Below the pieces are notes generated by a model that saw only the letters and a program-made list of their open reading frames with translations, had not been told where the DNA came from and searched no databases. Shown here piece by piece: positions 35,924-63,886 of a DNA stretch of 64,000 nucleotides (position 1 is the stretch's first letter; each line of letters starts with the position of its first letter). Origin of the DNA: Syntrophaceae bacterium. GTDB taxonomy: Bacteria; Desulfobacterota; BSN033; UBA1163. The position numbers and the translations under genes are program-made. The stretch covers positions 5,826 through 69,825 of the forward strand of contig JACAEX010000020.1 in assembly GCA_013388635.1 (NCBI GenBank), written 5' to 3'.

Positions 35924-36613
35924 ATGCCGAAGAATTTAAAGAAGGTTCTGATAGTTGACGATGAAGAGACCTTGACATGGAGCATGGCCAAAAGCCTCTC
36001 AAAAGATAAAGATAAATATGAGGTGATCATTGCCAACAATGGCCAAGAGGCCTTGACTCTCTTGGAACAGAACAGGGTTGATTTAGTGATCACTGACATA
36101 CGGATGCCAGACATTAATGGTCTGGATCTGCTTGTTAGAATAAGGAAGGAATACCCCCAAACCAAGGTCATCATCATGACGGCTTACGGCTCTTCCGACA
36201 TCCAGAAAGAGGCTACCCAGAGGGGATCTCTCTACTACGTGGAAAAGCCCTTTGAGATTTCAGACATAAGGAAGATCATCATCGATCTCATCGGACATAA
36301 AAAGGGATTCCGTGGAAAGGTATTTGGCCTCCAGCTGACCGATGTGATTCAGATGAACTGTCTGGGCAGACTCACCACAGCACTCATCATCACGCGGGAC
36401 GGCGAGAAGGGGATCATCTATTTGAACGAAGGGGAGATCGTCCATGCGGAATGCGGAGAACAGAAGGGAGCAGAGGCCTTCTATAACATCCTGAGCTGGC
36501 AGGAAGGGGAGTTCGTCTCAAATATTGGCTTCGCCGCCCCTGTGCAAACAATCTACCAGAGCTGGGAACATCTCCTGATCGAAGCGATGCGGAGGAATGA
36601 CGAAAAGGCATGA
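35924..36613 (+). CDS. Response regulator: REC domain plus C-terminal DUF4388 (PATAN-type) domain
   Basis: REC (VLIVDDEE...DLVITDIRMPDINGLDL...KVIIMTAYG); C-terminal KVFGLQLTDVIQMNCLGRLTTALIITRDGEKGIIYLNEGEIV. Confidence 0.7.
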   Translation: MPKNLKKVLIVDDEETLTWSMAKSLSKDKDKYEVIIANNGQEALTLLEQNRVDLVITDIRMPDINGLDLLVRIRKEYPQTKVIIMTAYGSSDIQKEATQRGSLYYVEKPFEISDIRKIIIDLIGHKKGFRGKVFGLQLTDVIQMNCLGRLTTALIITRDGEKGIIYLNEGEIVHAECGEQKGAEAFYNILSWQEGEFVSNIGFAAPVQTIYQSWEHLLIEAMRRNDEKA

Positions 36614-38907: not shown

Positions 38908-40068
38908 ATGGAGCAGGGAATTTCAATTCGAGCCATCGGTGGCGGTAGGGTAAAAAAAGAGGAGACGATCCAGGCGCTGGCTCAGGAGTTAGAGGATGTC
39001 AAAAATTTCATGGATAGCGTCATCCAGAGCATCGGAAGCGGAATCATCATCACAGGGATGAACGATACCATTACCTACATCAACCGGGCAGGGGAGAGGC
39101 TTTCAGGGTATTCAAGGGAGGACGTGATCAACAAACCCTTCAGCATCTTTGCCCTGAGGGAAAAGCAGAGCGATATCCACGCCTTCTTCGATAATCCTGA
39201 TGATCATACGACGAGAAGGGAAGGGTGGATGAGGAGGAAGGACCATACCGAATTTCCCGTCGGATTTAGCATGAACGATCATGTCAATGTCAAGGGAGAG
39301 AGGATAGGCAAGATCGTGATCTTCCGCGATCTGACCAATGTGTATAAAATCCAGGAGGAAATATTGAGGATGGACCGCCTGGTGTCTCTGGGAAAACTGG
39401 CTTCGGGCATTGCGCATGAGCTTCGAAATCCCCTTGCCGGGATTAAGACGACCGCTCAGGCGCTTAGCGAGGAGATGCCGAAGGACGATCCCAAAAGAGA
39501 ATATCTAAATCGAATTACCAGGGAGATCGACCGGTTAAACGATCTCTTGAAGACCTTCTTCTCCTTTGCCAAGCCACAGGAATTGAATCTGGTTTACTGC
39601 CACATCCGAGAGGTGATCAATGAGATCATCCCATTTCTTTTCAAGGAGATTGCTGATCAGGGGATCCGGTTTAATGAAAGCTATGACCCAGAGCTCCCTA
39701 AGATCAAAGTTGATAAGGCCCAGATGCACCAGGCCTTTCTAAATCTCTTTTTGAATGCCATCCAGGCGATGCCCCGCGGAGGGGAGCTCAAGATTGAGGT
39801 GACGCCAACCACTCTGCAATCCTCTGATGGACTCAAACAGAACTTCGTTAAGATCATCATCTCCGATACAGGAAAAGGTATTCCTCCACATATCATTCAG
39901 AAAATTTTCGATCCGTTTTTTACAACGAAACCGAAAGGGATTGGGCTGGGCCTTTCGATCACCTATCAGATCATTAAGAAACACGGGGGGACGATTAAGG
40001 TCGAAAGTGAATGGGGCAAGGGAACTTCCTTCATCATCAATTTGCCGGAGGCGTTGGAGAACCCATGA
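38908..40068 (+). CDS. Cytoplasmic PAS-domain sensor histidine kinase
   Basis: PAS (ITGMNDTITYINRAGERLSGYSRED), H-box ASGIAHELRNPLAGI, G-boxes DTGKGI/GIGLGLS. Confidence 0.8.
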   Translation: MEQGISIRAIGGGRVKKEETIQALAQELEDVKNFMDSVIQSIGSGIIITGMNDTITYINRAGERLSGYSREDVINKPFSIFALREKQSDIHAFFDNPDDHTTRREGWMRRKDHTEFPVGFSMNDHVNVKGERIGKIVIFRDLTNVYKIQEEILRMDRLVSLGKLASGIAHELRNPLAGIKTTAQALSEEMPKDDPKREYLNRITREIDRLNDLLKTFFSFAKPQELNLVYCHIREVINEIIPFLFKEIADQGIRFNESYDPELPKIKVDKAQMHQAFLNLFLNAIQAMPRGGELKIEVTPTTLQSSDGLKQNFVKIIISDTGKGIPPHIIQKIFDPFFTTKPKGIGLGLSITYQIIKKHGGTIKVESEWGKGTSFIINLPEALENP

Positions 40069-41441
40069 GACCTTCGATTCTTATTGTAGATGATGATGAG
40101 GTCCTGCGAGAGACCCTTTTTGATGTCTTTCGGAAGAAGGGTTACGAGGTTTTTTCTGCGGGAACGGGAGACGAAACCCTCACAGTCATAAGAAGGTATC
40201 TTGTCGATCTAATTCTTCTGGATATGCGACTCCCGGATGTGGACGGATTGGATATCTTGAAGAAGATTAAGGAGTTGGATACCGAGATTTTGGTCATTAT
40301 GATGACCGCCTACTCCGATGTCCAGAGCGCGGTGAAGGCGATGAAGTCAGGAGCTTACGACTACATCAACAAGCCCTTCGAATTAGAGGAATTGCAGCTG
40401 CTGGTTGAAAAGGGTCTGGAGACGAAGAGCCTGATCAACGAGGTGCGGAGACTCCATCGGCAACATCGGGTGGAGCACAGGGACAGCCATATTTACGGGG
40501 TGAGCCCGCAGATTCAATACGTGAGAGAAATGATCGAAATGATCAGCAAAACCAATAAGACCTCTGTCCTGATTCAGGGAGAGAGCGGAACGGGCAAAGA
40601 GCTGGCGGCCAATGCCATCCATTTCAGCAGCAAACGGAGCGCCAAACCTCTGATGAAGATTAATTGCAGCGCCATTCCCGATTCGTTATTGGAGTCGGAA
40701 CTCTTTGGATATGAGAAAGGTGCTTTTACCGACGCAAAGACCACGAAGAAGGGGCTTTTTGAACTGGCAGATGGAGGGACGGTCTTCCTGGACGAGATTG
40801 GAGAGATGAAGCCCTTTTTGCAGTCAAAGATACTAAGAGTTCTTGAAAATCAGACATTTATGAGAGTGGGCGGGGAAAGGGAGATCAAGGTCGATGTCCG
40901 AGCGATTGCAGCGACCAATCGGGACCTGGAGCAGATGGTCAGGGATGGGCTCTTTCGAAAGGATTTATACTACAGGTTAAAGGTGATGGTGGTTGAGATG
41001 CCACCTCTCCGTGAAAGAGTGGAGGATATTCTCCTTCTTGCGAAGTTGTTCGTCGAGGAGAACAATAAGGAATACAATAAGGATGTCAAAGGATTTTCCG
41101 AGGAGGCAAAGAAATTGCTGGTTCAGTACTCATGGCCAGGGAATGTAAGAGAATTGAAAAATGTGATTGAAAGAGCGATGATTTTGACTGATGGGGAGTA
41201 CATCACACCCAAACAGCTCCCGTTTGAATTAAAGCAAACCGAACCTAACTGTGCGGTGAAGGTGATTTCTGATCTCTCTGATCCAGTGCTTGGGATTTCC
41301 CTGGAGGATATGGAGAGAAGTCATATCTCAAATGTTCTCAAGAGGCTGGAATGGAATAAGTCGAAGGCATCGAAGGCCTTGGGGATTTCTCGAGCGACTT
41401 TGAGGGCAAAGATCAAAAGATACAGCCTTGATGCAATTTAG
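40065..41441 (+). CDS. Sigma-54-dependent response regulator (NtrC family)
   Basis: ATG 40065 overlaps kinase stop (ATGA); REC, GESGTGKEL, GAFTDA, C-terminal HTH. Confidence 0.85.
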   Translation: MRPSILIVDDDEVLRETLFDVFRKKGYEVFSAGTGDETLTVIRRYLVDLILLDMRLPDVDGLDILKKIKELDTEILVIMMTAYSDVQSAVKAMKSGAYDYINKPFELEELQLLVEKGLETKSLINEVRRLHRQHRVEHRDSHIYGVSPQIQYVREMIEMISKTNKTSVLIQGESGTGKELAANAIHFSSKRSAKPLMKINCSAIPDSLLESELFGYEKGAFTDAKTTKKGLFELADGGTVFLDEIGEMKPFLQSKILRVLENQTFMRVGGEREIKVDVRAIAATNRDLEQMVRDGLFRKDLYYRLKVMVVEMPPLRERVEDILLLAKLFVEENNKEYNKDVKGFSEEAKKLLVQYSWPGNVRELKNVIERAMILTDGEYITPKQLPFELKQTEPNCAVKVISDLSDPVLGISLEDMERSHISNVLKRLEWNKSKASKALGISRATLRAKIKRYSLDAI

Positions 41442-43835: not shown

Positions 43836-44409
43836 AAATAGGTTCCTCTCAGGAAAGGAAAAGGGTTCTCAAGAGAATAGGACTCTCTACTCTCTGCTGT
43901 CTCTATGGGCCGTCTTTCTTTTCATGGTGGCCAGCTGCGGAGGAAGTTCTCCTCCTCCTGTTCAAAAGGCAAAACCTCTCGCGGTGGAGAAGAAGATGGC
44001 GGAAAGTGCAAAGGCACCTGAGAAGAAGGATCAGGAGGAGAAGAAGGAGCCCGAGTACGTTTACAACCCGGCAGGAAAACCGGATCCCTTTAAGCCATTT
44101 ATCCAATTGGAATCTGTAAAAGAGGTTGCCAAGACCGCTCCGCTTACCCCCTTGCAAAAATACGATGTCAGTCAATTGAAGTTGGTGGCTATTATTACGT
44201 CAGCGGAAGGGGGAATCGCTATGGTCGAAGATGCCACTGGCAAAGGATACTCTTTGCGAAAGGGGACGGGGATCGGGAAACATGACGGGAAGGTGAAGAA
44301 GATCCTTAAGGACAGGGTGATCATTGAAGAAGTGTATGAGGATACGCTTGGCCAGAAAAAAGTTCATGAGATTTCATTGTTTCTTCATAAAGAGGGAGGA
44401 GAGTCATGA
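43828..44409 (+). CDS. pilP: PilP lipoprotein
   Basis: Lipobox MVASC; C-terminal beta domain KGYSLRKGTGIGKHDGKVKKI; start 43828 or 43798. Confidence 0.65.
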   Translation: MSKNRFLSGKEKGSQENRTLYSLLSLWAVFLFMVASCGGSSPPPVQKAKPLAVEKKMAESAKAPEKKDQEEKKEPEYVYNPAGKPDPFKPFIQLESVKEVAKTAPLTPLQKYDVSQLKLVAIITSAEGGIAMVEDATGKGYSLRKGTGIGKHDGKVKKILKDRVIIEEVYEDTLGQKKVHEISLFLHKEGGES

Positions 44410-47243
44410 GATCATATCGCCTGATTAAAACCATCTCTTTTCTCACCGGGTTGCTCTTGTTGAGTGGTTGCGCTGTAAGCAGACCTTCCATAGAGGCCCC
44501 AAGCCCAGGCACTCCAGATATCGCAACAAAGGCAGGAAGAGTTTCTGCCATCGAGGGGATAACTTTTACAGAGGAGGAGAATTTTACAAGGATTAAGATC
44601 TCGGGTTCTGAAACCCTCGAGGCCCCTTTCTATAAACTCTTGACCGACCCCCTCAGACTTATCATCGATCTTCCAAATGTCGACTTGAAACAGCTGAGGG
44701 ACCCGATCAAGATTGAAAATGGGACGGTCGGTGAGGTCACAGCCACTCAATTGGATGACAAGGGAAGGATCGAGATCGGTCTCCTTCAGATGACGAACTA
44801 CAATATCTCAAAGGAAGAGAAGGATCTGATCATCGATATCGAAAAAATCAAGGCGATTGCTGAGGCGAAGGAAGGAGAAAAGCCAGAGGAACCGGTGAAA
44901 GAGAAGGAAGCTGAGATCCCTCCTCCGGAGATGAAGAAAGAGGAGGCCGTGCAGGTTCAACCTGTTGAGACACCTCCAGTCCAAGAGGTGAGCAAGAAGG
45001 CGAAGAATATCCTCACCGTCTCACTGGATCAGAAGAAGGACTCCATTACGTTCCAGATCATCGCTGACGGAAGCATTGGCAACTACAATGCGTTCAAACT
45101 GGATTCCCCTTCGAGGTTGGTCCTTGACATCTGGGAGGTGGGCAGCCGCTATCCGAAAGATTTGATCAAAATTCAAAATCGGTTGATCAAACAGGTCCGA
45201 ATTGGACGCCACCCGGATAAGATGAGGTTCGTCTTCGATTCTCTCAAACCCCAACTCCCCCCTTACCAGATCAATCGGATGGATGATAAGCTGATGGTCT
45301 CATTCGGGAAGGTTCCGCAGCCATCAGAGCCCCAAATTTTAGTGCCCGAAAAGCCCAGCGTAGGGGTCCCGGCACCGAAGGCTCGGGTGAATGCCCCGAT
45401 CGAATTTAAACAGATGGATAATAAGTCAAGGATCGTCGTATCGCTGACAGAGGAGCCAAAATTTGAATCTCAGTTGATTTCAAAAGATGTGATCGCGGTC
45501 GATATCAAGAATGCATTCGTTCCCAGGCGCCTCCAGAGGGAATTGGATACGAGCGCATTCGACAGCGCTGTCAAGTCGGTCGAGCTCAAAAACATCAGGT
45601 CAGGAGAGGCAAGCGATGTCAGAATCTTGATCAGATTAAAAGAAGAGGTGCCGTTTGAAACCGCTCAGGAAGGGAAGTCGCTGCTTATTGACATCGAGAG
45701 GCCTAAGAAGGCCGAGGCCAAGATAGGGGCTCCCTCAGAGATCAAAAGGGAGGAAGTGTCGCAGGAGTCGAGGAAAGAGGAGCCCAAAGAAGAAGCGGTG
45801 AAGAAAGAAGGAGAGGTCAAGAAGGAGGTTAAGGAAGAGGTTAAGAAAGAGGAGGCCAAGCCTTCTCCTGAGGGAAAAAAGACCGAGAAGGGCACCCCCA
45901 GGGCTGAGGAGAAGCCTCTTTCAGTAATTCCGCCGGTGAAAAAAGCGGAAGAGGAGAAGAAGGTGATCGAAGAAGCCCCTTCGGAAAAGGTCTATACCGG
46001 CAGGAGGGTATCCCTCGATTTCAAAGATGCCGATATTAAGAATATCCTCCGGCTGATCGCAGAGGTGAGCAACTTCAATATCATCACAGGGGATGATGTT
46101 TCAGGAAAGATCACGATGCGATTGGTCGATGTCCCCTGGGATCAGGCTCTGGATGTGATCTTGCAGGCGAGATCTCTCGGAATGAAAAAGGTCGGAAATG
46201 TGATCCGGATCGCGCCCCTCGATACCCTGAAGAAGGAGATTCAGACAGAGCTCGAGGCAAGAAGGGCGAAGGAGAAGCTGGAGGATCTGATGACCGAGCT
46301 CATCCCGGTCAACTATGCCACGGCCAAGGAGATCCTGCCCCAGGTCAAGAGCATCCTGAGTGAGCGAGGGGACATCAAGGTCGATGATCGGACGAATATC
46401 TTAATCGTCAAGGATATTGCTCGAAATATCGCTGCCGCAAAGAGCCTGATCAAATCGCTGGATACGAAGACGCCCCAGGTTCTGATCGAGGCCAGGATCG
46501 TGGAGGCCACGCTGACGTTTCAGAGGGACCTTGGTATTTCGTGGGGATTTTTGGCAGAGAAGGGAACGGACAAGAGGAGGACCTACTCGGTCGGGGGAGG
46601 GACAGCAGGGGAGAGCACCCTGAGAGCGCCCTCGGGAACTGCTTCGGTTGACACTCGAAAATTCGTCGATCTACCTACGAGCACGGCAGCAGGTCTCCTT
46701 GAATTTCTTTTCACCTCCGATTATGGGCTAAAGAATCTCGATGTTGCCATATCGGCTTATGAGAGCAAGGGAGATGTTAAGGTGATCTCGAGCCCAAAGA
46801 TCGCTACACTCGATAACAAAGAGGCATCGGTCGAGCAGGGGCTGAGGATTCCATATACCAAACTGACCACAGAGGGGACTGTAACAGAGGAGTTTATCGA
46901 GGCCAATCTGAAATTGATAGTAACCCCTCATGTGACCAACGACGGCCACATCAAAATGAGTATCAAAGTCAAAAAGGATGAACCGAGCAAGGCATTTGTA
47001 AGCAAGAGTGATACCCCGAGCATCGATAAGAAAGAGGCGATCACCGAGGTGCTGGTCAAAGATAACGGAGTGGTGGCGATCGCTGGTATCTATACGATCA
47101 AAAACGATCGGGGAACCACGGGCGTCCCATTTCTAAGTAAGATTCCCGTGCTGGGCTGGCTCTTTAAGAAGGAATCGAAGACGAATGACACGAAGGATTT
47201 ATTGATTTTCATCTCACCCAAGATCTTTAAGGATCAGGTTTAA
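44406..47243 (+). CDS. pilQ: PilQ secretin lipoprotein with three N-terminal AMIN domains, a Lys/Glu-rich low-complexity linker, N0/N1 and secretin domains
   Basis: Lipobox LLSGC; C-terminal secretin signature TTGVPFLSKIPVLGWLFK. Confidence 0.85.
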   Translation: MRSYRLIKTISFLTGLLLLSGCAVSRPSIEAPSPGTPDIATKAGRVSAIEGITFTEEENFTRIKISGSETLEAPFYKLLTDPLRLIIDLPNVDLKQLRDPIKIENGTVGEVTATQLDDKGRIEIGLLQMTNYNISKEEKDLIIDIEKIKAIAEAKEGEKPEEPVKEKEAEIPPPEMKKEEAVQVQPVETPPVQEVSKKAKNILTVSLDQKKDSITFQIIADGSIGNYNAFKLDSPSRLVLDIWEVGSRYPKDLIKIQNRLIKQVRIGRHPDKMRFVFDSLKPQLPPYQINRMDDKLMVSFGKVPQPSEPQILVPEKPSVGVPAPKARVNAPIEFKQMDNKSRIVVSLTEEPKFESQLISKDVIAVDIKNAFVPRRLQRELDTSAFDSAVKSVELKNIRSGEASDVRILIRLKEEVPFETAQEGKSLLIDIERPKKAEAKIGAPSEIKREEVSQESRKEEPKEEAVKKEGEVKKEVKEEVKKEEAKPSPEGKKTEKGTPRAEEKPLSVIPPVKKAEEEKKVIEEAPSEKVYTGRRVSLDFKDADIKNILRLIAEVSNFNIITGDDVSGKITMRLVDVPWDQALDVILQARSLGMKKVGNVIRIAPLDTLKKEIQTELEARRAKEKLEDLMTELIPVNYATAKEILPQVKSILSERGDIKVDDRTNILIVKDIARNIAAAKSLIKSLDTKTPQVLIEARIVEATLTFQRDLGISWGFLAEKGTDKRRTYSVGGGTAGESTLRAPSGTASVDTRKFVDLPTSTAAGLLEFLFTSDYGLKNLDVAISAYESKGDVKVISSPKIATLDNKEASVEQGLRIPYTKLTTEGTVTEEFIEANLKLIVTPHVTNDGHIKMSIKVKKDEPSKAFVSKSDTPSIDKKEAITEVLVKDNGVVAIAGIYTIKNDRGTTGVPFLSKIPVLGWLFKKESKTNDTKDLLIFISPKIFKDQV

Positions 47244-52041: not shown

Positions 52042-53148
52042 CTATTTCTCCGCCCGGAAGAACCTTTTCCACCCCTCACCCTCCTTCTCCTTCTTCATAC
52101 TTATCTCTTCGAACTCCCGGAGGATCTCCTCTTGCCTTTTTGTCAAATTCTTAGGCGTTTTCACAATAACCTGGACCACCTGATCTCCTCGACCCGATCC
52201 TTTAAGCCTTGGAAAGCCTTCTCCCTTGATCTTAAACACATCGCCAGTTTCAGTACCTCTCGGGATGGTTAGAGTTCGTTTTCCATTCAAGGTTGGTACC
52301 TCTATTTCGGCTCCGAGCGCGGCTTGGGTAAAAGCAATCGGAACCTGACAGACAATATCGTCTCCATCCCTTGAGAAGAAGTCGTGAGGTTCAACATAAA
52401 GAAAGACGAAGAGGTCACCCGGCGGTCCGCCTCGCTCGCCCTCCTCTCCCTCTCCCCGAATTCTCAATTTTGAGCCTGTGTCAACTCCCGGGGGTATCTT
52501 TAATTGGATCTTCCGTTTTGTCTTCACCTTGCCCACGCCGCGACACTCTTTGCAGGGATGCGAGATCACCCTTCCTTCACCGCGGCAGTGGCCGCACGTG
52601 GTGCTGATCGTAAAAAAGCCCTGTGATCGGGTGACCTGACCTGTCCCCCTGCAGGCTGGACAGGTTGTCGGTTGTGTTCCTGGTTTAGCGCCTGTTCCAT
52701 TGCAGACCTCACAGGACACTGTCTTGGGAATCTCAATCTCAGTGTCTTTCCCGAACGCAGCGTCATAAAAAGAGATTGTTAGATCATATCTCAGGTCAGC
52801 ACCAGGACGTGCCCTTGTCCTTCGTCTGGAGTAAGTGGTCCCGAATCCAAAAAAGTCCTCGAATATATCTCCAAAGGCTGAAAAGATGTCATCAAATCCT
52901 CTAAAACCCGTAAAGCCGGTGCCCTTCAGACCTTCAATCCCGTAATGGTCGTAGATCCGCCTTTTTTCCGGGTCCCTGAGCACTTCGTACGCCTCTGAAG
53001 CCAGCTTAAATTTTTCCTCGGCATCCTTGTCCCCCGGATTCCTATCCGGGTGGTATTGCATTGCAATCCTCCGATAGCTCCTCTTAATCTCTTCTTCAGA
53101 GGCATCCCTTGAGACACCGAGAATCCTGTAGTAGTCTTTATCTTCCAT
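52042..53148 (-). CDS. dnaJ: Chaperone DnaJ
   Basis: J domain DYYRILGV...HPD, four CxxCxGxG zinc-finger repeats; start at ATG 53148. Confidence 0.85.
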
Positions 53149-53299
53149 AGACGCCGCTAAAACCTGACAAAAAAGATAAGGGGCTCGGGAGATAGGGATA
53201 AACAAATCTTTTTTCCTCTTCACCCCATCTCCGATGCTCCTCATGCGAACTCGCAAGAGGGGCTTCGTAAGCTAAACTCAATTGCGAAACCATTTGAAC

Positions 53300-55166: not shown

Positions 55167-55254
55167 AATTAACGTCAACCATTGCCCAGGTTTCGATGAT
55201 AATGGGTAAAAAGGCTGTATTCATTTGGACTTAGTGAAAAGAGTGTGTAGGCCA

Positions 55255-56493
55255 ATGGAAACAAGAAGAGTGGTTATAACGGGGATGGGGGTTGTTGCCC
55301 CCAATGGTATTGGAATAGAAAATTTTTGGGATTCTTTAGTCAACGGACGATCTGGAATTCGAAGAATTACCCGTTTTGATCCCTCCTCCTATTCTTCACA
55401 AATTGCAGGAGAAGTGCAAGATTTTGACCCAACTAATTATATGGAACCAAAAACCGCAAAGAGATTGAGCAGGTTCGCTCAATTTGCATTAGCCGCTGCT
55501 CGAATGGCGGTGGGGGATTCTGATATTATTCTTGATCAAGAAGATCCTTATAACGTTGGAGTTTTTGTTGGAACTGCAATTGGCGGGTTGGATATTTTTG
55601 AGACTCAGCATTCTATTTTCATGGAAAAGGGCGTAAAGAGAATTAACCCGTTTTCAATGGTTTCGTGTTCAACCCATTCCGCAAGTGCAGTTATTGCTTG
55701 TGAGCTTAGTCTAAGAGGAATCAATACGACCATTTCTTCAGGGTGTAATACGGGATTGGATACAGTCTATTCAGCTTTTAACTCAATCCGTGTTGGAGAT
55801 GCAGATATAATCGTTGTTAGTGCGGGGGAGGCCCCTCTTACCCCTCTTATCCATGGGATATTTTGTGCCACCGGGTATATATCACGCCGAAACGGAGAAC
55901 CCCAAAAGGCTTTAAGACCATACGATTCAGATGCTGATGGAATAGTCTTAGGTGAAGGTGGTGCCTGTGTTATCATAGAGGAACTTAATCACGCAATAAA
56001 AAGAAATGCAAAAATTTATGCTGAGATAATAAGCTATTCTGCCTTGAACGAAGCATTCGATCTTTTGGAGGTCGATAATAATGAAGAAACAATGGCTTTG
56101 AATTTGAGAAGGCTTTTGGAAAAGGGGCGCATTGATACTGCCGAGATTGATTATATCAGTGCCCACGGAAACGGCATAGTTTCTTATGATATTATAGAGA
56201 CCAATGCCATTAAGCGAGTGTTCGGAAATTTAGCATACAACATTCCGGTCACATCGATAAAACCTGTTACTAGCCACTCAATTTCAGCTACAGGCATATG
56301 GCAGATTATTACCTCTCTTTTGGCAATGAAAACTAGCACTATTCCCCCTACTATTAATATTTTGAATCCCAATCCCAAGTGTGATCTTAACTATTTGCCG
56401 AATGGTTTTCTAAGAAAAGAGGTTCGAACTGCAATTATCAATACACATGGATTTGGCGGCAGGTTAACAGCAATTGCCCTAAAAAAATTTTAG
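55255..56493 (+). CDS. Beta-ketoacyl-ACP synthase (KAS I/II, FabF-like)
   Basis: METRRVVITGMGVVAPNGIG, active-site region SSGCNTGLD, C-terminal NTHGFGG. Confidence 0.8.
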   Translation: METRRVVITGMGVVAPNGIGIENFWDSLVNGRSGIRRITRFDPSSYSSQIAGEVQDFDPTNYMEPKTAKRLSRFAQFALAAARMAVGDSDIILDQEDPYNVGVFVGTAIGGLDIFETQHSIFMEKGVKRINPFSMVSCSTHSASAVIACELSLRGINTTISSGCNTGLDTVYSAFNSIRVGDADIIVVSAGEAPLTPLIHGIFCATGYISRRNGEPQKALRPYDSDADGIVLGEGGACVIIEELNHAIKRNAKIYAEIISYSALNEAFDLLEVDNNEETMALNLRRLLEKGRIDTAEIDYISAHGNGIVSYDIIETNAIKRVFGNLAYNIPVTSIKPVTSHSISATGIWQIITSLLAMKTSTIPPTINILNPNPKCDLNYLPNGFLRKEVRTAIINTHGFGGRLTAIALKKF

Positions 56494-56517: not shown

Positions 56518-58695
56518 ATGATCAACCTGAGTATCACAAACATTGTTTTATGGGTAGCGTTTTTATTAAATTTGGCCTTGGGCTTCTTGGTCTATCTAAA
56601 AGAACCCAAGAGAAGTGTTAATATTTCCTTTTCCATATGCACTTGGGCATTATCGGGCTGGATATTAGGTGTGTCAATGTTTTTTCTATTTAAAGACCCC
56701 ACGCCCAGGTTATTTTGGGCTAGGATGACTTTTTTCTCAGCAAGTATTATTCCTTCTGCCTTTTTCTATTTTTCGTTAATTTTCCCACAAGAAAAACGTA
56801 CCATTACCCCGTCAAAGATATTACTTATTTTTTCCCCAGCCTTAATGTTCGCTATCGCCTCTTTGACAAAATTGATGGTTCATTCTGCTCGTTGGGATAC
56901 TTTGACTATGAATTATGGTGTGGCTCATAAGTTTTTTTCAGTTTATTTGCTTGCAGGGATGTTCGGAGGAATTTTCTTTCTTATAAAGTCGTATAGAAAT
57001 TCAGTAGGGTTGAAACGTATTCAGATTAAGTATTGTTTGTCAGGGTTGCTTATAATGACTATTTTTGGCATTAGTTTTAATCTTATCATTCCCATGATTA
57101 GCTCATCGCGGTTCAGTTATTTAGGGCCTGTTTCGTCAATCATCATGGTGAGCTTTATTAGCTATGCAATTGTTAGACACCGGTTGATGGACATTAATAT
57201 CGTCTTTAAAAAAGGGACGACTTATGTTCTTTTGATATTGCTCTTTTTAGTGCCCTCTGCCATATTGATCGTGATCTTTCAAAAGCTCTTTTTTAAAGAG
57301 ATTAACTATCTTTTTTCTGTCATCATTTTATCGCTCCTCTTTGTGGTTGCTCGCTTGTTTCACGAAATCAAACCAGGTGCAGAAAAGGCAGTGGAGTATG
57401 TTCTCTTTAGAAATAAATACGACTATCGGGAGACCCTGGGAAAATTCGGCAGGGCCATGGTCTCCATCCTCGATTTGCAATCTCTGTCCCGGAGGATTAT
57501 TGATACGATCGCCCAGACGATGGGGGTTGAGAAGGCATCGCTATTCCTGTTGAATGAAGAAAAGGGAGGGTTCGTTCTAAAGGAATCGAGAAACGTGGAG
57601 ATGGAGCTACCCACTCCAATGCTTCAAAAGGGAGACCCCCTGCCCCATTATTTACAGAGGATCGAGGAAATCATAGTCAGGGAAGAGCTGATGAAGGGAG
57701 CACATATCCCCGAATTAAAGAAGGTGGTTGACCAGATGTCTCTTTTAGAAGCAGAGGTCAGCATCCCCCTGCTTTCAAAAGGCCGTTTGATCGGGTTCAT
57801 TAACCTGAGTCATAAATTCAATAAGGACATCTATTCGCACGAAGATATTGAGTTGCTGACCACACTGGCCTTTCAGACCTCAATCGCAATCGAGAACGCA
57901 AGGCTCTATGAGGATTTGAAAAAATCGAAATCGTATATGCGCAGGGCGGACCGTCTGGCTTCTTTGGGAACCCTTGCGACCGGCCTGGCCCATGAGATCC
58001 GTAACCCGCTGGTCGCCATTAAGACCTTCACCCAATTGCTTCCGGACCGCCTCGATGACGAAGAGTTTAGAAACCATTTTCTTAACGTCGCCTCCTCAGA
58101 GGTCGATCGAATCTCATCGCTGATCACCGAACTTCTCGACTTCGCAAAACCATCCGAGCCAAAGCTCGAACTTGAAGATATCAACAGTATCTTAGATGGG
58201 ATGCTCCTTTTGATTTCGACTGAGACGAAGAAGAAGGAAATCAGTGTCGTTAAAAACTATACCCCAAACTTACCACTGGTCAAGGTTGACCGGGAACAGA
58301 TCAAACAGGTCTTCTTGAATATCTTGCTCAATGCCATCGACGCAACGCCCATAAAAGGTCGGATCAGCGTGACCACACGCTCGTTTATAAAGCCTCATGG
58401 GGAGCCCTATCTCCAGATCGAATTTACGGACACGGGATGTGGCATCCCACCAGAACATCTGGAGGAGATCTTCACCCCATTCTTTTCGACCAAGGATAAA
58501 GGAAGTGGATTGGGGTTAGCGATCTGCCATCAGATCATCCAGGACCATAATGGATATATTGATGTGGAGAGCGAGTTGAACAGAGGGACGTCTTTCTATA
58601 TCAATTTACCACTACAAGAGGCGTACACGAAAGAGAAAAAAGAAGACTTTATTAGAGAACACCGTGAAGGGTTCGATTCTGTTGAATCAGCATGA
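56518..58695 (+). CDS. Multi-TM (about 8 TM) - GAF - HisKA - HATPase sensor histidine kinase, PrsK-like architecture
   Basis: N-terminal 300 aa hydrophobic, GAF, H-box ATGLAHEIRNPLVAI, G-boxes DTGCGI/GSGLGLA. Confidence 0.75.
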   Translation: MINLSITNIVLWVAFLLNLALGFLVYLKEPKRSVNISFSICTWALSGWILGVSMFFLFKDPTPRLFWARMTFFSASIIPSAFFYFSLIFPQEKRTITPSKILLIFSPALMFAIASLTKLMVHSARWDTLTMNYGVAHKFFSVYLLAGMFGGIFFLIKSYRNSVGLKRIQIKYCLSGLLIMTIFGISFNLIIPMISSSRFSYLGPVSSIIMVSFISYAIVRHRLMDINIVFKKGTTYVLLILLFLVPSAILIVIFQKLFFKEINYLFSVIILSLLFVVARLFHEIKPGAEKAVEYVLFRNKYDYRETLGKFGRAMVSILDLQSLSRRIIDTIAQTMGVEKASLFLLNEEKGGFVLKESRNVEMELPTPMLQKGDPLPHYLQRIEEIIVREELMKGAHIPELKKVVDQMSLLEAEVSIPLLSKGRLIGFINLSHKFNKDIYSHEDIELLTTLAFQTSIAIENARLYEDLKKSKSYMRRADRLASLGTLATGLAHEIRNPLVAIKTFTQLLPDRLDDEEFRNHFLNVASSEVDRISSLITELLDFAKPSEPKLELEDINSILDGMLLLISTETKKKEISVVKNYTPNLPLVKVDREQIKQVFLNILLNAIDATPIKGRISVTTRSFIKPHGEPYLQIEFTDTGCGIPPEHLEEIFTPFFSTKDKGSGLGLAICHQIIQDHNGYIDVESELNRGTSFYINLPLQEAYTKEKKEDFIREHREGFDSVESA

Positions 58696-60239
58696 ATTAT
58701 CAAGAATTGCTTCAATCTCCGATCATCCCACCCCAAATTGTAGCACTGACCCAGAAGGCCAGCTCCAATATGGTCCCTGTCCTCATCCAGGGCGAACAGG
58801 GAACAGGAAAGGAGTTGATCGCAAAGCTCATCCATTACACCGGAGACTGGAAATCTTACCGTTTCCTCAAAATGGATTGTCGAATCATGACGAAAGATAC
58901 ATTTCAGGCCTCCCTCTCCGAGCTTCTTAAAGAGACCGAAGGGGGTGAGACCCCGGCAACCGTTTATCTCAAGGAAGTCGGGTACTTAGGAAAGGAGAGC
59001 CAGTTAAAGCTATTGGAATTGATCGAAGACGGGGTCCTTCAGACTAACGGAGAGAAGAAAGTGATCAAGAATATCCGGTTTATCTCCTCTTCGTCTGAGG
59101 ATTTGAAAGAGAAGGCCGCCCAGGGAAAATTCTTAGAGGATTTATACTATCAATTGAGCACCCTCTCCATTTTCGTACCGCCCTTGCGAGATAGGACAGA
59201 CGAGATTCCGAAGATCGCCCAGTACATCCTGGAAGAATATTCTAAAAGGATGAGGCTTAAGAAGGTGGCCATTTCCAATGATGTCCTCTCGCTTCTGGAA
59301 AGCTACTGGTGGCCAGGGAACCTGCGAGAGCTCGAGCATGTGGTGATCCGGGGAGCGGTTTATTCCGACGGCGAAACGCTGAAAGAGAAGGATCTCTTCT
59401 TTAGACAGGAGGAGGAAAGGACATCTTTCTCCTCTTTTCTGAAGAAGTCTGATGTGAAGCCCCCCCTGCCGAAGGAGAGGGGCTTTTCAGGAGAGGAGGA
59501 TACTCCCTCTTTGTCCGCCTTTCTGATTGAGTTGGTCCACCGGATCAAGAATCCCCTTGTCTCGATCAAGGCATTTACGCAACTCTTGAGGGAAAAATTT
59601 AATGATCCTGAATTCAGAAATCAATATTATCGAGTGGTGACCGAAGATATCGATAGGATCGATTCCCTGCTGAACGGTTTCTTGAACTACATCAAGATCA
59701 ACACCCCGATCGAGAAAAGGAACACGGTTCACGGGGTTCTGGACGATGTTTTAAAGAGGCACGATCCCCAGCTTAAAGACAAACAGATAAAGGTATTTAA
59801 GAGGTATGAAGAAGGCCTTCCCGAAACCATTGTCCACGAGGAGCAGCTTCGCTATATTTTCGATTCGATCCTGCAATATGCGATCTCCTCTGTGCCTCCA
59901 AACGGGAGCATCGGATTTTTGACAAAATCCTCGAACACTCACAAAAAGACTCCCGTCGAAAGAGCACTGTCAAATGGGGAAAAAGGACAGATTGAGATTG
60001 TGGTCGTCTTCACTGGCTATAAGAGGGAAGGCGAACCGTTGAGGAATGTGTTAGGAATTCCCGTCCCCCCGCAGGAGGAGAAGATCGAATTGGAACTGCG
60101 GCTGCTCAAAGAGATTATTCAAAAGAACCGGGGGATGATGAAATTCGAGGTCGACGAGAAGAAACCGCGAACCCTGATCTCTCTGAGCTTCCCCATCGAA
60201 AGAAGAAAGGTGATCTATTACCCGTCAGCAGAATCGTAG
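58692..60239 (+). CDS. Degenerate sigma-54-activator-like AAA+ domain (no GAFTGA, altered Walker B) fused to a HisKA-like domain and degenerate ATPase-like C-terminus
   Basis: LIQGEQGTGKELIA Walker A; LEDLYYQLSTLSIFVPPLRDRTDEIP; H-box-like LVHRIKNPLVSIKAFTQLL; no G1/G2 boxes. Confidence 0.55.
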   Translation: MNYQELLQSPIIPPQIVALTQKASSNMVPVLIQGEQGTGKELIAKLIHYTGDWKSYRFLKMDCRIMTKDTFQASLSELLKETEGGETPATVYLKEVGYLGKESQLKLLELIEDGVLQTNGEKKVIKNIRFISSSSEDLKEKAAQGKFLEDLYYQLSTLSIFVPPLRDRTDEIPKIAQYILEEYSKRMRLKKVAISNDVLSLLESYWWPGNLRELEHVVIRGAVYSDGETLKEKDLFFRQEEERTSFSSFLKKSDVKPPLPKERGFSGEEDTPSLSAFLIELVHRIKNPLVSIKAFTQLLREKFNDPEFRNQYYRVVTEDIDRIDSLLNGFLNYIKINTPIEKRNTVHGVLDDVLKRHDPQLKDKQIKVFKRYEEGLPETIVHEEQLRYIFDSILQYAISSVPPNGSIGFLTKSSNTHKKTPVERALSNGEKGQIEIVVVFTGYKREGEPLRNVLGIPVPPQEEKIELELRLLKEIIQKNRGMMKFEVDEKKPRTLISLSFPIERRKVIYYPSAES

Positions 60240-60267: not shown

Positions 60268-61635
60268 GTGAATGTGAGAAGCGTCTTAATTGTTGACGAT
60301 GAGGCAGGTACCAGGGAATCGATCAAGATGATTCTGAAGAACGATTACGAGGTCTTCTTGGCCAGAGACGCCGAGGAGGCATTTGCTCAGATCAAGGCAC
60401 ATTCGCCGGATGTGATTCTCCTTGACATCATCCTGCCTGATATCGATGGTTTAAAAGTTCTTGAAAAGATTAAGGAAAATGACCCAGATCTGATCGTGAT
60501 CATGATCACCGCAACCAAGACGGTCAAGACAGCCGTTGAGGCGATGAAATTAGGGGCCTACGACTACGTGACCAAGCCCTTCGATGTCGATGAACTCCGG
60601 TTGATCATTAACCGGGCCCTGTCGACTCAGGCCCTGGAGAAGGAGGTCAGATATCTTCGGAAGGAGATCGATAAGGGGTTCAGCTTTGGGAACATCATCG
60701 GTAAAAGTAAGGTAATGGAAGACATTTTTAAGGTGGTCAGGCAAATCGCAGATTCAAAATCGACTGTTCTCATCATGGGAGAGAGCGGAACCGGAAAGGA
60801 GCTAATCTCTCGGGCAATCCATTATAATAGCAATCGAAGGAATTTCCCCTTCGTCACGATCAACTGTGCCGCCATCCCGGAGACCTTGATCGAGAGTGAA
60901 CTGTTCGGCCATGAAAGGGGGGCGTTCACCAATGCGATCGAGAGAAAGTTGGGCCGTTTTGAGATTGCCCATCGGGGGACGATCTTTCTCGATGAGATCG
61001 GTGAATTGAGCCTGAACACACAGGCAAAGATCCTCAGATTCTTAGAGGAGAAGGAGTTCAATCGGGTTGGAGGGTCGAAGACGATCAAAGTCGATGTCAG
61101 GCTGATCACGGCGACCAACAGAGACCTGAATCAGCTCTTAAAAAAAGGGGAGTTCCGGGAGGATCTCTATTATCGGATCAATGTGGTCCCCATCGTCATG
61201 CCACCTCTCCGGGAGAGGAAGGAGGATATCCCTCTCCTGTTAGAGCACTTTATAAAGAAATTCAATGAGGAGAATAATAAAAAGGTCAAAGGGGTTAGCA
61301 AGGAGGCATTGGAACGTATCATGAGTTATGACTGGCCGGGCAACGTTCGGGAATTGGAGAATTTGATCGAGCGCGTGGTCGCTTTGACCTCCAATGAGCT
61401 TATCCAAGCCAACGAGTTACCGTTCTCATTGACCAACGTGCCTAAGCTCAATGGGTTAAAAGAGTCTGTTTTGGAGGGCAAGGTCTCTTTTTCAAAGGCA
61501 GAGGAGGAATTTGAAAGGGATATTATCCTCGACGCCTTGAGAAAGGCCAACTATGTTCAGTCCCGTGCAGCTGAAATACTGGGCATCAGCCGCCGAATAC
61601 TGAAGTACAAGATGGATAAATTAGGAATCGCTTGA
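60268..61635 (+). CDS. Sigma-54-dependent response regulator (NtrC family)
   Basis: REC, GESGTGKEL, GAFTNA, ...GISRRILKYKMDKLGI HTH. Confidence 0.85.
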   Translation: MNVRSVLIVDDEAGTRESIKMILKNDYEVFLARDAEEAFAQIKAHSPDVILLDIILPDIDGLKVLEKIKENDPDLIVIMITATKTVKTAVEAMKLGAYDYVTKPFDVDELRLIINRALSTQALEKEVRYLRKEIDKGFSFGNIIGKSKVMEDIFKVVRQIADSKSTVLIMGESGTGKELISRAIHYNSNRRNFPFVTINCAAIPETLIESELFGHERGAFTNAIERKLGRFEIAHRGTIFLDEIGELSLNTQAKILRFLEEKEFNRVGGSKTIKVDVRLITATNRDLNQLLKKGEFREDLYYRINVVPIVMPPLRERKEDIPLLLEHFIKKFNEENNKKVKGVSKEALERIMSYDWPGNVRELENLIERVVALTSNELIQANELPFSLTNVPKLNGLKESVLEGKVSFSKAEEEFERDIILDALRKANYVQSRAAEILGISRRILKYKMDKLGIA

Positions 61636-61887
61636 AACAAAGCTAAAAGGAGGCAAAAAGGTACAAAATTGTATATCGGTGTTCGATTTTGAGCAAGATT
61701 AATCTTTTCCACTTATTACAATAGGTTACAATTCATGTTGAACGAAATGGCTTAATACTTCGCAAAAAACGGCATATCTTTACCTATCCTTTTAGGCAGG
61801 GATTCTGCCTCTCTTCCCCACCTAAAAATTTCCTTTAGATATCAAATAATTGTTAAATATCCCTAACCGCATTTTTTTATGCATTTA

Positions 61888-61902
61888 TGGCAAAGTTCTT
61901 GC
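61888..61902 (+). promoter_or_regulatory. Candidate sigma-54 promoter TGGCAA-N5-TTGCT upstream of HD-GYP response regulator
   Basis: tGGcaaagttcttGCt, about 75 nt upstream of ATG 61978; NtrC-type activator gene immediately upstream. Confidence 0.5.
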
Positions 61903-61977
61903 TTCAATTCTAACTAACCCCTGGAGAAGCCTCGCCGTTTAGGGAGAAGAGGGGGAGATCACGAAGGGGAGGAGATT

Positions 61978-63099
61978 ATGGAGGCTAAACCCAACGTGCC
62001 TAATGTCCTCATTGTTGACGACGAGATCGGGCCGAGAGAATCCTTAAGAATGATCTTAAAGGCAAACTATAATGTCTTTGCAGTTGAGAATGGGAATGCT
62101 GCGATTCAAATGGTCCAGCAAATCCCGATGGATGTCGTTACATTAGATCTGAAGATGCCTGGCCTCTCCGGAATCGATACCCTTAAGGAACTTCGGCTGA
62201 TCGACCCCGATCTCATGATAATCATCATCACTGGATATGGGACCTTAAAGAGCGCAATCGAAGCGATTCGATATGGAGTCTTTGACTATATTCCCAAGCC
62301 CTTCAACGTACCGGAGATCATCTCCATCATCGATCGATCGGTACAGCGGAGGAAACTCAATTTGAAGATCAAGGAAGTGATCGGTAACTTCTTTGAGGTT
62401 TCGCTCGGTGCATCGCCACTAAAGGACGGCATGCCCATTCAGGATGGAACCGCTCATCCTAAGTGGGGCCGCGAAATACCGTCCGGTGAACAAAACTTTT
62501 TAAAATTCGCCAAGGTCCTCGCCCATACCCTTGAGGAGAAAGACCCTTATACCTCCGGCCACTCCGAGAGGGTCTGTTACTATTCTGATTTTATTGCCAA
62601 GCGGCTTCCCCTCTCTCCGAAAGAACGGGCTGAAATCCAGATCGCTGCCTATCTCCATGATGTCGGGAAGGTCGGGATCAGCAATCGATTCATGAATAAA
62701 AAGGGGACGTTGACGCCTATCGATTGGGCGATCATTAAACAGCATACGAAGAAGTCGATCGAGCTTTTGCTTCCGTTAAACCTCTCTCCGAGCATCCTTG
62801 CGTGCATTCAATATCATCACGAGCGCTTTGACGGAACGGGCTACCCGGATGGACTCGCGGGCGACCAGATCCCAGTAGGGGCGAGGATCATCGCAATCTG
62901 CGACGCCTATGACAGCATGACCTCAGATCAACCCTACCGGAAGCCGCTCTCCCATGAGGAGGCGAAGAGTGAATTATTGAAATTCTCAGGCAAACAATTC
63001 GATCCCAATCTCGTCTCCATCTTTTTAGATGTTCTGAAGGAAATGGAGGAGGTCTTTCTGGTAAGAGACCATCTAAAAGCCCCCTCGATCTCATACTAA
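61978..63099 (+). CDS. Response regulator with HD-GYP c-di-GMP phosphodiesterase domain
   Basis: REC; HD (AAYLHDVGK) and HHERFDGTGYPDGL. Confidence 0.8.
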   Translation: MEAKPNVPNVLIVDDEIGPRESLRMILKANYNVFAVENGNAAIQMVQQIPMDVVTLDLKMPGLSGIDTLKELRLIDPDLMIIIITGYGTLKSAIEAIRYGVFDYIPKPFNVPEIISIIDRSVQRRKLNLKIKEVIGNFFEVSLGASPLKDGMPIQDGTAHPKWGREIPSGEQNFLKFAKVLAHTLEEKDPYTSGHSERVCYYSDFIAKRLPLSPKERAEIQIAAYLHDVGKVGISNRFMNKKGTLTPIDWAIIKQHTKKSIELLLPLNLSPSILACIQYHHERFDGTGYPDGLAGDQIPVGARIIAICDAYDSMTSDQPYRKPLSHEEAKSELLKFSGKQFDPNLVSIFLDVLKEMEEVFLVRDHLKAPSISY

Positions 63100-63100
63100 G

Positions 63101-63886
63101 ATGAAAGAAGGAAAGGAGCCACAAATGAACCAACTCATCCGCTGCGTCAATTGCGACGCAATCTTTCTCAAGACCCCATTCGATCAGTACCCGGAATATG
63201 ACCCGGACTCAACCCATTCACCTGAATCATTTCGAACCATTGAAAAGGATGACCTCCAGGATTTTCTAAAGAATCACCGCGGCCACCGAATGGAAGAATT
63301 GAAGGTCCTGGAAGACTCGTTCGTCAGTGAAAGAGACTACATCGAACCGGTCAAGACCTCCTATTTCAAGGCGACCAATGGAACCGAGAAGTTCGTCATT
63401 AAGAAATTCAGGGAGAAGATCGAAGAGCCGCTCCGATATCAGTTGATTCATGGAGACTATTGTTTAAAGTGTATTGGAATCGAAATCCGGTCTGAAGAGA
63501 TCGCCAAACAGCTCCAGGCAGAATTCAAGGCGACCCCCCTTCCCCCTGACAAGCTGGAGGCCTTTCTCAAGCTATTTCACTATATTGCTAAAAACACGGA
63601 TGTCAACAAATTGGAGAGAATTCCTGAAGAGTCCTCGAATCCGTTGGAGATCTATTACAGGATCGACGATATCAGTCTGGTTTATCTGCTGAGGAACTGC
63701 CGCAATATCTTTCAAGGCCAGGAATACACGGCCATCGAAGATTTCATCCGTCGGCATAAGGACGACGGCGTGCTCTTGCTGAAGGCCACGTATCGGATCC
63801 AGATCAACGAGGTAGCTAAAAAGAGAAAAAGGCTTATGGCAGCCCAGATTCGCCCAGAAAGGGCAAGGGTCGTAGCCAAAGGATAA
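63101..63886 (+). CDS. Hypothetical protein (N-terminal CxxC), translationally coupled to HD-GYP regulator
   Basis: ATG 2 nt after upstream stop; IRCVNCDAIF N-terminus; no recognised domain. Confidence 0.4.
   Translation: MKEGKEPQMNQLIRCVNCDAIFLKTPFDQYPEYDPDSTHSPESFRTIEKDDLQDFLKNHRGHRMEELKVLEDSFVSERDYIEPVKTSYFKATNGTEKFVIKKFREKIEEPLRYQLIHGDYCLKCIGIEIRSEEIAKQLQAEFKATPLPPDKLEAFLKLFHYIAKNTDVNKLERIPEESSNPLEIYYRIDDISLVYLLRNCRNIFQGQEYTAIEDFIRRHKDDGVLLLKATYRIQINEVAKKRKRLMAAQIRPERARVVAKG

Follow-up and report, generated by a model that had tools for sequence, protein, structure and literature searches.

The hybrid gene described here, for which we use the working name FUS, occupies positions 58692-60239 of a 64-kb window (the whole stretch of Syntrophaceae DNA that was analysed) and lies between the genes for an intact sensor kinase and an NtrC-type activator of sigma54-dependent transcription. 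Its novelty is the fusion of a kinase-derived core to a dead motor of the enhancer-binding protein (EBP) type, fixed in position between kinase and EBP, and FUS is probably a third party that tunes this kinase-activator pair. Open reading frame (ORF) analysis and translation of the window give an uninterrupted frame of 515 codons. The ATG of FUS overlaps the TGA of the upstream kinase by 4 nucleotides (nt; gcATGAatt), as had been noticed in the first-pass annotation of this DNA, and 28 nt separate the end of FUS from the next gene. The protein is identical (100% over the full length) to P0001, a deposited protein from a metagenome-assembled genome (MAG) of a Syntrophaceae bacterium. The gene, its internal features and its two immediate neighbours are as follows.

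56518..58695, + strand: intact sensor kinase with seven transmembrane helices (7TM), GAF, HisKA and HATPase_c domains (Pfam); a neighbour of FUS in all loci.
58692..60239, + strand: FUS, 515 amino acids (aa), composed of a pseudo-AAA+ domain, a linker, dimerization and histidine phosphotransfer (DHp) helices and a pseudo-catalytic and ATP-binding (pseudo-CA) domain (ORF, translation, Pfam and AlphaFold2 (AF2) models).
58737..59420, + strand: degenerate sigma54-activator-type AAA+ domain and lid, residues 16-243 (Pfam, Foldseek, AF2).
58791..58814, + strand: Walker A motif GEQGTGKE, residues 34-41 (alignment).
58923..58979, + strand: place where the GAFTGA loop is deleted (residues 78-90), with the altered Walker B motif VYLKEV after it (residues 91-96) (alignments).
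59514..59702, + strand: HisKA/DHp helices, residues 275-337, with His283 at nt 59538-59540 (HisKA, 38.9 bits).
59724..60197, + strand: pseudo-CA domain, predicted to keep the kinase ATP-binding fold without N, G1, F and G2 boxes, residues 345-502 (Pfam, alignment, PDB profile search, Foldseek).
60198..60221, + strand: conserved C-terminal tail ERRKVIYY, residues 503-510, in which E503, R504, R505 and Y510 are each found in 120/120 family members.
60268..61635, + strand: NtrC-type enhancer-binding response regulator (receiver (REC), AAA+ and HTH_8 domains) with a GAFTNA loop (Pfam, motifs).

The N-terminal half of FUS had been described in the first-pass annotation as a sigma54-activator-type AAA+ domain, and profile and structure comparisons bear this out. 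Sigma54_activat (PF00158) matches residues 16-160 with 87 bits, against 243 bits on the neighbouring activator, and AAA_lid_14 matches residues 166-243 with 62.6 bits. The AF2 model of this domain has a predicted local distance difference test (pLDDT) score of 80-90 and aligns with NtrC1 (3m0e/1ny6) at a template modelling (TM) score of 0.80 in Foldseek, so that by both Pfam and Foldseek the alpha/beta and lid fold of the EBP-clade AAA+ domain is present. The catalytic motifs were read from an alignment with the three genuine EBPs of the window and with orthologues of FUS, and residue frequencies were counted over 120 members of the 515-aa family. The Walker A sequence and the sensor II region are present, as the annotation had stated: Lys40 is found in 118/120 members, but 36/120 have Glu in place of the preceding Gly and several REC-bearing orthologues have no Lys there; the sensor II Arg (GNLRELE) is kept in 109/120. 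Other motifs of the motor are lost or altered. The sigma54-contacting GAFTGA (L1) loop, correctly reported as missing, has been removed by a deletion of 11-12 residues in FUS and in all its orthologues. The Walker B motif reads VYLKEV where EBPs have FLDEIG (hhhDE), the altered residue being the catalytic-motif Asp at position 94, which is Lys in 100/120 members and Arg in 18/120. The arginine-finger segment FREDLYYR of EBPs is FLEDLYYQ in FUS; its first finger position is Ser in 112/120 members and Leu in 8/120, and its second is Arg in 74/120 and Gln in 44/120, the window FUS having Gln. Sensor I is SSS rather than the ATN of EBPs.

A DNA-binding domain is also lacking: Pfam finds neither HTH_8 nor any other helix-turn-helix (HTH) domain in FUS, whereas HTH_8 of the neighbouring EBP scores 49.5 bits. 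Since it lacks the GAFTGA loop, the Walker B Asp, conserved arginine fingers and any DNA-binding domain, FUS is firmly predicted to be incapable of serving as a sigma54 activator, and EBP-type ATP hydrolysis should be impossible for it. EBPs without GAFTGA are known in TyrR, HupR and Rhodobacter NtrC, which are sigma70-dependent transcription factors and have a DNA-binding domain; FUS differs from these in having no HTH and in carrying a kinase-like module in the C-terminal position that the HTH would take. A recent duplication of the neighbouring EBP was considered as the source of the AAA+ domain and rejected, because this domain is no closer to its neighbour (31% identity) than to the two other EBPs of the window (33% to each).

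The C-terminal half is derived from a histidine kinase. The HisKA-like helix with a conserved His that had been proposed is recognized by Pfam, and AF2 models a helical hairpin there. Its H-box, LVHRIKNPLVSIKAFTQLL, contains His283, and this residue, Arg284 at H+1 and Asn287 at H+4 are each present in 120/120 members. The Arg replaces the acidic H+1 residue of HisKA kinases, and Asn287 supplies, at the level of the residue, the Thr or Asn that HisKA phosphatases have at H+4. Work on four HisKA kinases assigned the two positions to separate activities: kinase activity alone depends on the acid at H+1, and phosphatase activity alone on the Thr or Asn at H+4 (Willett and Kirby, PMC3510030).

Beyond the DHp helices, HATPase_c gives no Pfam match on FUS even at E<=1, in line with the earlier reading of a C-terminus without G1 and G2 boxes; what that reading missed is that a kinase-ATPase-like fold is nevertheless retained. 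The N box NILLNAIDA of the adjacent kinase becomes SILQYAISS in FUS, and the Asn of this box is replaced by Y396 in 119/120 members. The G1 box DTGCGI becomes FTGYKR, of which FTGYK is conserved, and the G2 box GSGLGLA becomes KIELELR in the window and (A)IELELR as the conserved form; E468 and R470 are essentially invariant. The ATP boxes thus appear to have been exchanged for another conserved set of residues, rather than eroded at random. A profile of the C-half matches entire DHp and CA chains in the PDB, namely ZraS (5e-19), KinB, VicK and RetS, and a separate AF2 model of this half (predicted TM score (pTM) 0.67) aligns with ZraS, RetS, DivL, GacS and CpxA over 230-245 columns in Foldseek. 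As modelled, then, the C-terminus of FUS is a kinase ATP-binding fold that would not bind ATP. Because it has neither ATP-binding boxes nor an acid after the His, FUS is not expected to be capable of HisKA-style autophosphorylation in the normal way.

Could the AAA+ P-loop, rather than a GHKL domain, bind ATP and phosphorylate His283, making FUS an unorthodox kinase? The near-universal Walker A Lys, the sensor II Arg and the invariant His are what such an enzyme would keep. We nonetheless consider it very improbable: in over a quarter of members (36/120) Glu has taken the place of the GK-motif Gly, the Walker B Asp has given way to Lys or Arg, the acid at H+1 has gone, such chemistry is without precedent, and several orthologues in the same slot that have no Walker A Lys (GLGQE, GSGHE) still keep the His.

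FUS belongs to a coherent and well-conserved family. A word-indexed search gave no fewer than 120 clusters (62-84% identity), each of about 515 aa and with an identical Pfam architecture. Alignment of 59 members gives a mean column identity of 77% with about 80 invariant columns. A genome scan found FUS in 36 species-level genomes from relatives of sulfate reducers, all of them MAGs of uncultured Thermodesulfobacteriota, Syntrophaceae or 'Syntrophorhabdus', and a metagenome scan added about 65 further loci; intact copies lie on more than 100 independent contigs. Mean p-distances were computed over 34 non-redundant loci, the same set that served for the mirror-tree comparison discussed below. 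The domains of FUS give 0.179 (DHp), 0.367 (pseudo-AAA+) and 0.351 (pseudo-CA); in its partners the values are 0.167 (AAA+ of the activator), 0.113 (DHp of the kinase) and 0.245 (CA of the kinase). The dead domains of FUS therefore evolve 1.4-2.2x faster than their live counterparts and are still well conserved. The DHp is the core and the most conserved part of the protein, and FUS is under strong selection, which is strongest on the DHp helices.

These data bear directly on whether FUS is merely a decaying remnant of an EBP or a kinase, or the product of a pseudogene, a frameshift or an assembly fusion. Decay would explain why Pfam scores FUS weakly (87 and 38.9 bits) and why every catalytic motif is lost. 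Decay would not maintain an intact ORF of the same length in at least 120 clusters and on that many independent contigs, nor about 80 invariant positions that include the box replacements Y396, E468, R470 and ERRK, nor a cassette position that is kept across lineages diverged to 34% identity. Pseudogene and frameshift are rejected on the conservation of length, motifs and gene order, and decay in any form is scarcely credible; the annotation had been right to treat FUS as something other than a decayed or frameshifted EBP.

The family is probably undescribed in any curated family or paper, as had been suspected when its fusion was not recognized. NCBIfam yields only partial matches below cut-off, to many EBP equivalogs and to AtoS, and no model reaches its own cut-off on FUS. 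Database names of members are generic ('sigma 54-interacting transcriptional regulator' or 'nitrogen-specific (signal transduction) histidine kinase'), the named members all come from MAGs, and searches of the literature, directed at the fusion or at HisKA_7TM systems, found no description.

When representatives clustered at 50% identity are searched exhaustively, the 515-aa family collapses into one cluster and three further groups appear. The first consists of proteins of about 620-660 aa (33-40% identity) with an N-terminal receiver in front of the pseudo-AAA, HisKA and pseudo-CA domains. Two of these REC-bearing orthologues (L120 and L121; about 34% identity) were checked on their contigs and occupy the same slot between a 7TM-GAF kinase and an EBP, and the accessory is therefore ancient. 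They have the same loop deletion as FUS and keep HE(I/V/F/M)KNPL; several have lost the Walker A Lys, and the receiver has no phospho-acceptor Asp, with Gly, Glu or Asn in its place. Such an orthologue would combine three pseudo-domains with a His that still looks functional. One REC-bearing relative, P0143 (1040 aa), has a C-terminal family 9 glycosyltransferase (heptosyltransferase) domain, a fusion that could be real and point to the cell envelope or could be an artefact of gene calling.

The second group consists of orphan proteins of about 280-345 aa that correspond to the C-half only (40-49% identity; L051 1566-2420 and L041 1008-1898, with others on L040, L042, L044, L061, L096 and L100). 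These paralogues, typically of about 290 aa, share with FUS an SFxSFLKK helix and the tail consensus ERRKVxYY, the latter being absent from the REC-bearing orthologues. Their His is often Gln, Ser, Gly or Tyr, and their genes adjoin a tadA-like deaminase gene and dnaX rather than signalling genes. Stand-alone C-half proteins were considered as a clue to the partner of FUS and set aside, since most metagenome matches are the fusion itself and the true orphans have no signalling neighbours. The third group is a single 827-aa protein, P0145, in which an EBP-type AAA+ domain without GAFTGA precedes GAF, PAS and HisKA domains and an intact HATPase_c (76.8 bits); an AAA+ module of this kind therefore also occurs as the N-terminal part of an apparently active kinase. 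EBPs with tandem AAA+ domains (P0138 and similar) were examined as a Rosetta-stone for pairing of the pseudo-AAA domain with an EBP, but both domains score as ordinary EBP domains and the proteins were not used.

The first DHp helix bears on what FUS may do. Alpha1 of FUS, HRIKNPLVSIKAFTQLL, is identical to that of the adjacent kinase, HEIRNPLVAIKTFTQLL, at 13/17 positions; across loci it reads HRIKNPLVSIK(A/T)FTQLL, and the match between FUS and kinase is kept in all orthologous loci, including those of the REC-bearing lineage. Over 141 residues the two DHp regions are 38% identical, alpha2 being less alike than alpha1. In the other two kinases of the window alpha1 differs, one of them having HELRNPLAGIKTTAQAL. 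The rewiring work of Skerker, Laub and colleagues is said to have established DHp alpha1 and receiver alpha1 as the specificity determinants of kinase-regulator pairing. The receivers encoded with FUS have a matching peculiarity, an alpha1 signature G.RES[LI][KR]M[IV]L that occurs 181 times in the loci. In the window it lies at 60283-60330 in the activator (GTRESIKMILK) and at 62005-62050 in a REC-HD-GYP protein encoded downstream (GPRESLRMILK). The same signature is found in a REC-HATPase that is confined to the sister lineage and in the Asp-less pseudo-receiver of the REC-bearing orthologues, and none of the three other response regulators of the window carries it. Overall, the two cassette receivers are only 41% identical, less than the 45-47% between the cassette activator and the other two activators. 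Since the DHp alpha1 helices are near-identical and the receivers share an alpha1 signature, the simplest inference is that kinase and FUS would dock one common set of receivers.

The likeness of the two DHp domains can also be read in terms of the kinase itself. FUS could form a DHp heterodimer with it, as RetS does with GacS, and so block or redirect its autophosphorylation, or the CA domain of the kinase could phosphorylate His283 in trans. The ATGA overlap suggests co-translation and hence a fixed proportion of the two proteins, RetS is among the top matches of FUS in both sequence and fold, and the Asp-less pseudo-receiver, with its docking signature, could be a decoy substrate of the kinase in the REC-bearing orthologues; to these may be added the 38% identity and the near-identical alpha1. 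With Arg at H+1, however, it is doubtful that a CA domain of any origin would phosphorylate His283 well (PMC3510030), alpha2 is less similar than alpha1, and a heterodimer leaves no role for the AAA+ module. We regard a modulator of this kind as a serious rival, though quite an unlikely one.

FUS and its neighbours form a conserved signalling cassette of at least four components, among them a second response regulator behind a conserved sigma54 promoter. The first-pass annotation had noticed neither this nor the REC-bearing orthologues and orphan C-half paralogues. The remaining features of this cassette in the window are as follows.

55225..56493, + strand: FabF-like beta-ketoacyl-ACP synthase, which opens the cassette (NCBIfam NF005589; 395 bits, cut-off 387).
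61664..61691, no strand assigned: inverted repeat CAAAAT-N16-ATTTTG, a candidate upstream activator site (conserved blocks in the 31-region alignment).
61840..61852, + strand: TATCAAATAATTG, a site resembling the consensus of integration host factor (IHF), between repeat and promoter; its CAA and TT cores are conserved, and a role for IHF is presumed.
61888..61903, + strand: sigma54 -24/-12 promoter TGGCAAAGTTCTTGCT, which differs from the consensus at one position and lies 75 nt before the REC-HD-GYP gene.
61978..63099, + strand: response regulator with REC and HD-GYP-type HD domains (Response_reg 93 bits, HD_5 123 bits; HD and GYP motifs in the translation).
63101..63886, + strand: conserved 261-aa protein without a Pfam family, which closes the cassette.

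In every locus that is long enough, the order is dnaJ and a Zn-ribbon gene (on the opposite strand), fabF-like, 7TM-GAF kinase, FUS, EBP, REC-HD-GYP and the gene for the 261-aa protein. In the REC-bearing loci it is fabF-like, 7TM-GAF kinase, FUS orthologue, EBP, REC-HD and/or REC-HATPase and a homologue of the 261-aa protein, so that the FabF-like gene is found upstream of the kinase in both lineages. Two receivers are encoded by the cassette of the window, and three and a pseudo-receiver by that of L120. Orthologues of the activator that adjoin FUS are 75-90% identical. Homologues of the 261-aa protein (L120 12961-13722 and L121 5256-6089) are 32-33% identical between the lineages; the protein has about 60 invariant positions, among them N-terminal RCxxC and NHxGH motifs that may form a metal site. 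Chaperone genes lie near the cassette, with dnaJ upstream in the window (52042-53256) and hrcA-grpE-dnaK downstream in L121, and together with the FabF-like gene these neighbours hint at a membrane-related or heat-related signal.

The first-pass annotation had called the kinase PrsK-like, and of this the architecture (7TM-GAF-HisKA-HATPase) stands, whereas the score does not: residues 26-698 align end to end with positions 18-679 of the PrsK model TIGR02916, at 176.5 bits against a cut-off of 300. The activator likewise aligns end to end with the PrsR model TIGR02915 (469.5 against a cut-off of 502.6). To our knowledge, the PrsK/PrsR two-component system of PEP-CTERM bacteria has no described protein between its two members, and the parts of the window that were examined showed neither exosortase nor PEP-CTERM genes. 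Two other kinase/EBP pairs (18950/20766 and 38908/40011) lie in a type IV pilus cluster, and neither has a middle gene. The pilus region extends over about 18900-47300 and encodes PilY1-like proteins (23982-27170 and 31509-34298), a REC-DUF4388 protein (35924-36613) and a PilQ-type secretin with AMIN domains (44406-47243).

The output of the cassette was examined by comparing the intergenic region 61636-61977 among 31 orthologous regions. The -24/-12 element is present in 30/31 of these loci at a fixed distance. A scan of the whole window for the sigma54 consensus gave 30 matches where 18.9 were expected, which is not significant, and the site at 61888 is credible only because it is kept across loci. 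The activator very probably drives expression of the REC-HD-GYP gene and of the 261-aa protein, and the sigma54 pathway appears to be live in the source organism. Canonical GAFTGA is absent from all three EBPs of the window, which have GAFTNA (60268-61635) or GAFTDA (20766-22145 and 40011-41441); among 89 orthologues of the cassette EBP, GAFTNA occurs in 77, GAFTDA in 6, GAFTHA in 4, GSFTNA in 2 and GAFTGA in 0. The conserved downstream sigma54 promoter suggests that a loop of the GAFTNA type is functional.

Accessory proteins that are built like kinases and do not act as kinases are known from several bacteria. In the four-gene RedCDEF system of Myxococcus xanthus, which has one true kinase, RedE does not autophosphorylate, takes phosphate from RedD and dephosphorylates RedF (PMC2755868). 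RedE is kinase-like and shares its gene set with a true kinase and two response regulators; FUS likewise belongs to a cassette with one kinase and at least two receivers. Unlike FUS, RedE lacks an AAA+ module and works with partners other than sigma54 activators, and in FUS the His is followed by Arg; beyond the HisKA superfamily no sequence relationship between the two is established. In sequence, FUS shows the traits of an accessory of the RedE/Spo0B/ChpT type, namely a DHp His, a dead ATP domain and at least two receivers encoded nearby. Spo0B and ChpT are dimers with a DHp-like domain, a phospho-accepting His and a CA fold that does not bind ATP, and they shuttle phosphate between two receivers; they keep the Asp after the His and have no AAA+ domain. 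Neither was among the matches of the C-half of FUS in the PDB profile search or in Foldseek. DivL of Caulobacter and RetS of Pseudomonas resemble FUS in having DHp and CA folds without kinase activity, and act by binding a response regulator (DivL) or the DHp of another kinase (RetS). They differ from it as large membrane or multi-PAS sensors with no AAA+ domain and no tie to a sigma54 activator, and DivL has Tyr in place of the His.

NifL offers a parallel on the side of the activator. The DHp/GHKL part of NifL contacts the AAA+ domain of NifA directly and blocks formation of the hexamer (PMC12998174), and PDB entry 9qq6 turned up in the Foldseek search with the AAA+ model of FUS. Both proteins have a histidine-kinase-derived DHp/GHKL module encoded next to an EBP; NifL regulates by AAA+ contact without phosphotransfer; it has PAS/FAD sensors, its GHKL domain binds nucleotide, and it does not depend on a His. 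FUS, by contrast, has no PAS domain (no Pfam match), replaced ATP boxes, an invariant His and an EBP-type AAA+ domain of its own.

This parallel suggests that FUS might be a stoichiometric anti-activator without any phospho-chemistry, either poisoning the activator ring with dead AAA+ subunits that can supply neither an arginine finger nor a GAFTGA loop, or clamping the AAA+ domain of the activator with its DHp/pseudo-CA module as NifL does, the His being structural. That the AAA+ fold persists (TM 0.80) without trans-acting arginines or an L1 loop fits such a role, as do the mode of action of NifL itself (PMC12998174), the presence of the pseudokinases RetS and DivL among the best fold matches of the C-half and the persistence of orphan paralogues without the His. 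A structural role alone is hard to square with the 120/120 conservation of His283, Arg284 and Asn287 in the most conserved part of the protein, the H-box, and the alpha1 of FUS resembles the receiver-docking surface of a real kinase. Nor is the AAA+ domain any nearer to the neighbouring EBP than to either of the others. We consider an anti-activator of this kind, whether it poisons the ring or acts as a clamp, unlikely, and a serious rival all the same.

The reading that we favour, tentatively and with less than even confidence, is that FUS is an enzymatically dead accessory with affinities to both RedE and NifL, which would dock the receivers of its cassette and remove or re-route their phosphoryl groups while its dead AAA+ domain engages the activator. 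FUS would dimerize through its DHp helices, and its alpha1 surface would dock the receivers that the kinase docks, those of the activator and of REC-HD-GYP. Because His283 and Asn287 are invariant, FUS is proposed to act as a phosphatase on the phospho-aspartates of these receivers, as a reverse phospho-acceptor, or as both. EnvZ and NtrB keep their phosphatase activity when the His is mutated. The invariance of His283 exceeds what a phosphatase usually needs, which favours a phospho-acceptor role like that of RedE. By draining or re-routing phosphoryl groups, FUS may set the on-time of the activator, in a manner coupled to REC-HD-GYP, whose expression sigma54 would induce. Its dead AAA+ domain would be an EBP-like interaction module that brings the DHp to the AAA+ domain or ring of the activator, and it may also cap or poison that ring. 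The proposal of the first-pass annotation, an anti-activator or a phosphatase or phosphotransfer shuttle, is compatible with this evidence and appears somewhat sharpened by it, because alpha1 matches the kinase, the receivers share a signature, and H+1 Arg and H+4 Asn are invariant.

A bolder version, which we consider unlikely, makes FUS a double mimic that bridges the two halves of the two-component pathway. The dead EBP half would engage the kinase, the AAA+ ring or both, and the dead kinase half would dock the receivers, so that phosphorylation of the activator and assembly of its hexamer are read and reset. If true, FUS would be a covalent version of the DHp/GHKL-AAA+ pairing of NifL and NifA, a feedback or insulation device that is also a His-dependent phosphate sink towards REC-HD-GYP, and in the sister lineages the dead EBP half would include an Asp-less decoy receiver.

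Several observations weigh against the accessory that we favour. Arg at H+1 has no characterized precedent, and phosphatase competence would be an extrapolation; in the REC-bearing orthologues H+1 is Glu, and the chemistry may differ between lineages. The orphans without the His show that this scaffold can serve a purpose in which phospho-chemistry has no part. In any kinase the H-box region is conserved above all others, and the likeness of the alpha1 helices could in part mean common descent. The full-length AF2 model (pTM 0.47) gives no confident arrangement of the domains. The mirror-tree comparison of FUS with the domains of its partners shows no specific signal, all long domains correlating at r 0.7-0.9: the FUS and EBP AAA+ domains reach r 0.83, and the EBP AAA+ domain and the 261-aa protein r 0.87. 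Residue covariation between FUS alpha1 and the receivers is unobtainable because alpha1 is invariant.

For the annotation of these genomes, the consequences are practical. The motifs of FUS argue that sigma54 activation and a function as a transcription factor are excluded, and conventional kinase activity is very unlikely; censuses of regulons and kinases in Thermodesulfobacteriota would therefore over-count FUS proteins. FUS is a clean and testable candidate from an uncultured lineage and brings no paradigm shift. It would provide a natural test of whether rings of sigma54 activators are controlled by catalytically dead paralogous subunits, and of whether the DHp/GHKL-AAA+ contact of NifL occurs more widely. 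Accessory pseudo-enzymes such as RedE, DivL, RetS and NifL turn simple two-component pathways into networks, and few types of them are known; to these FUS would add another, in which a dead regulator motor is joined to a dead kinase core and fixed in the signalling cassette of an uncultured lineage.

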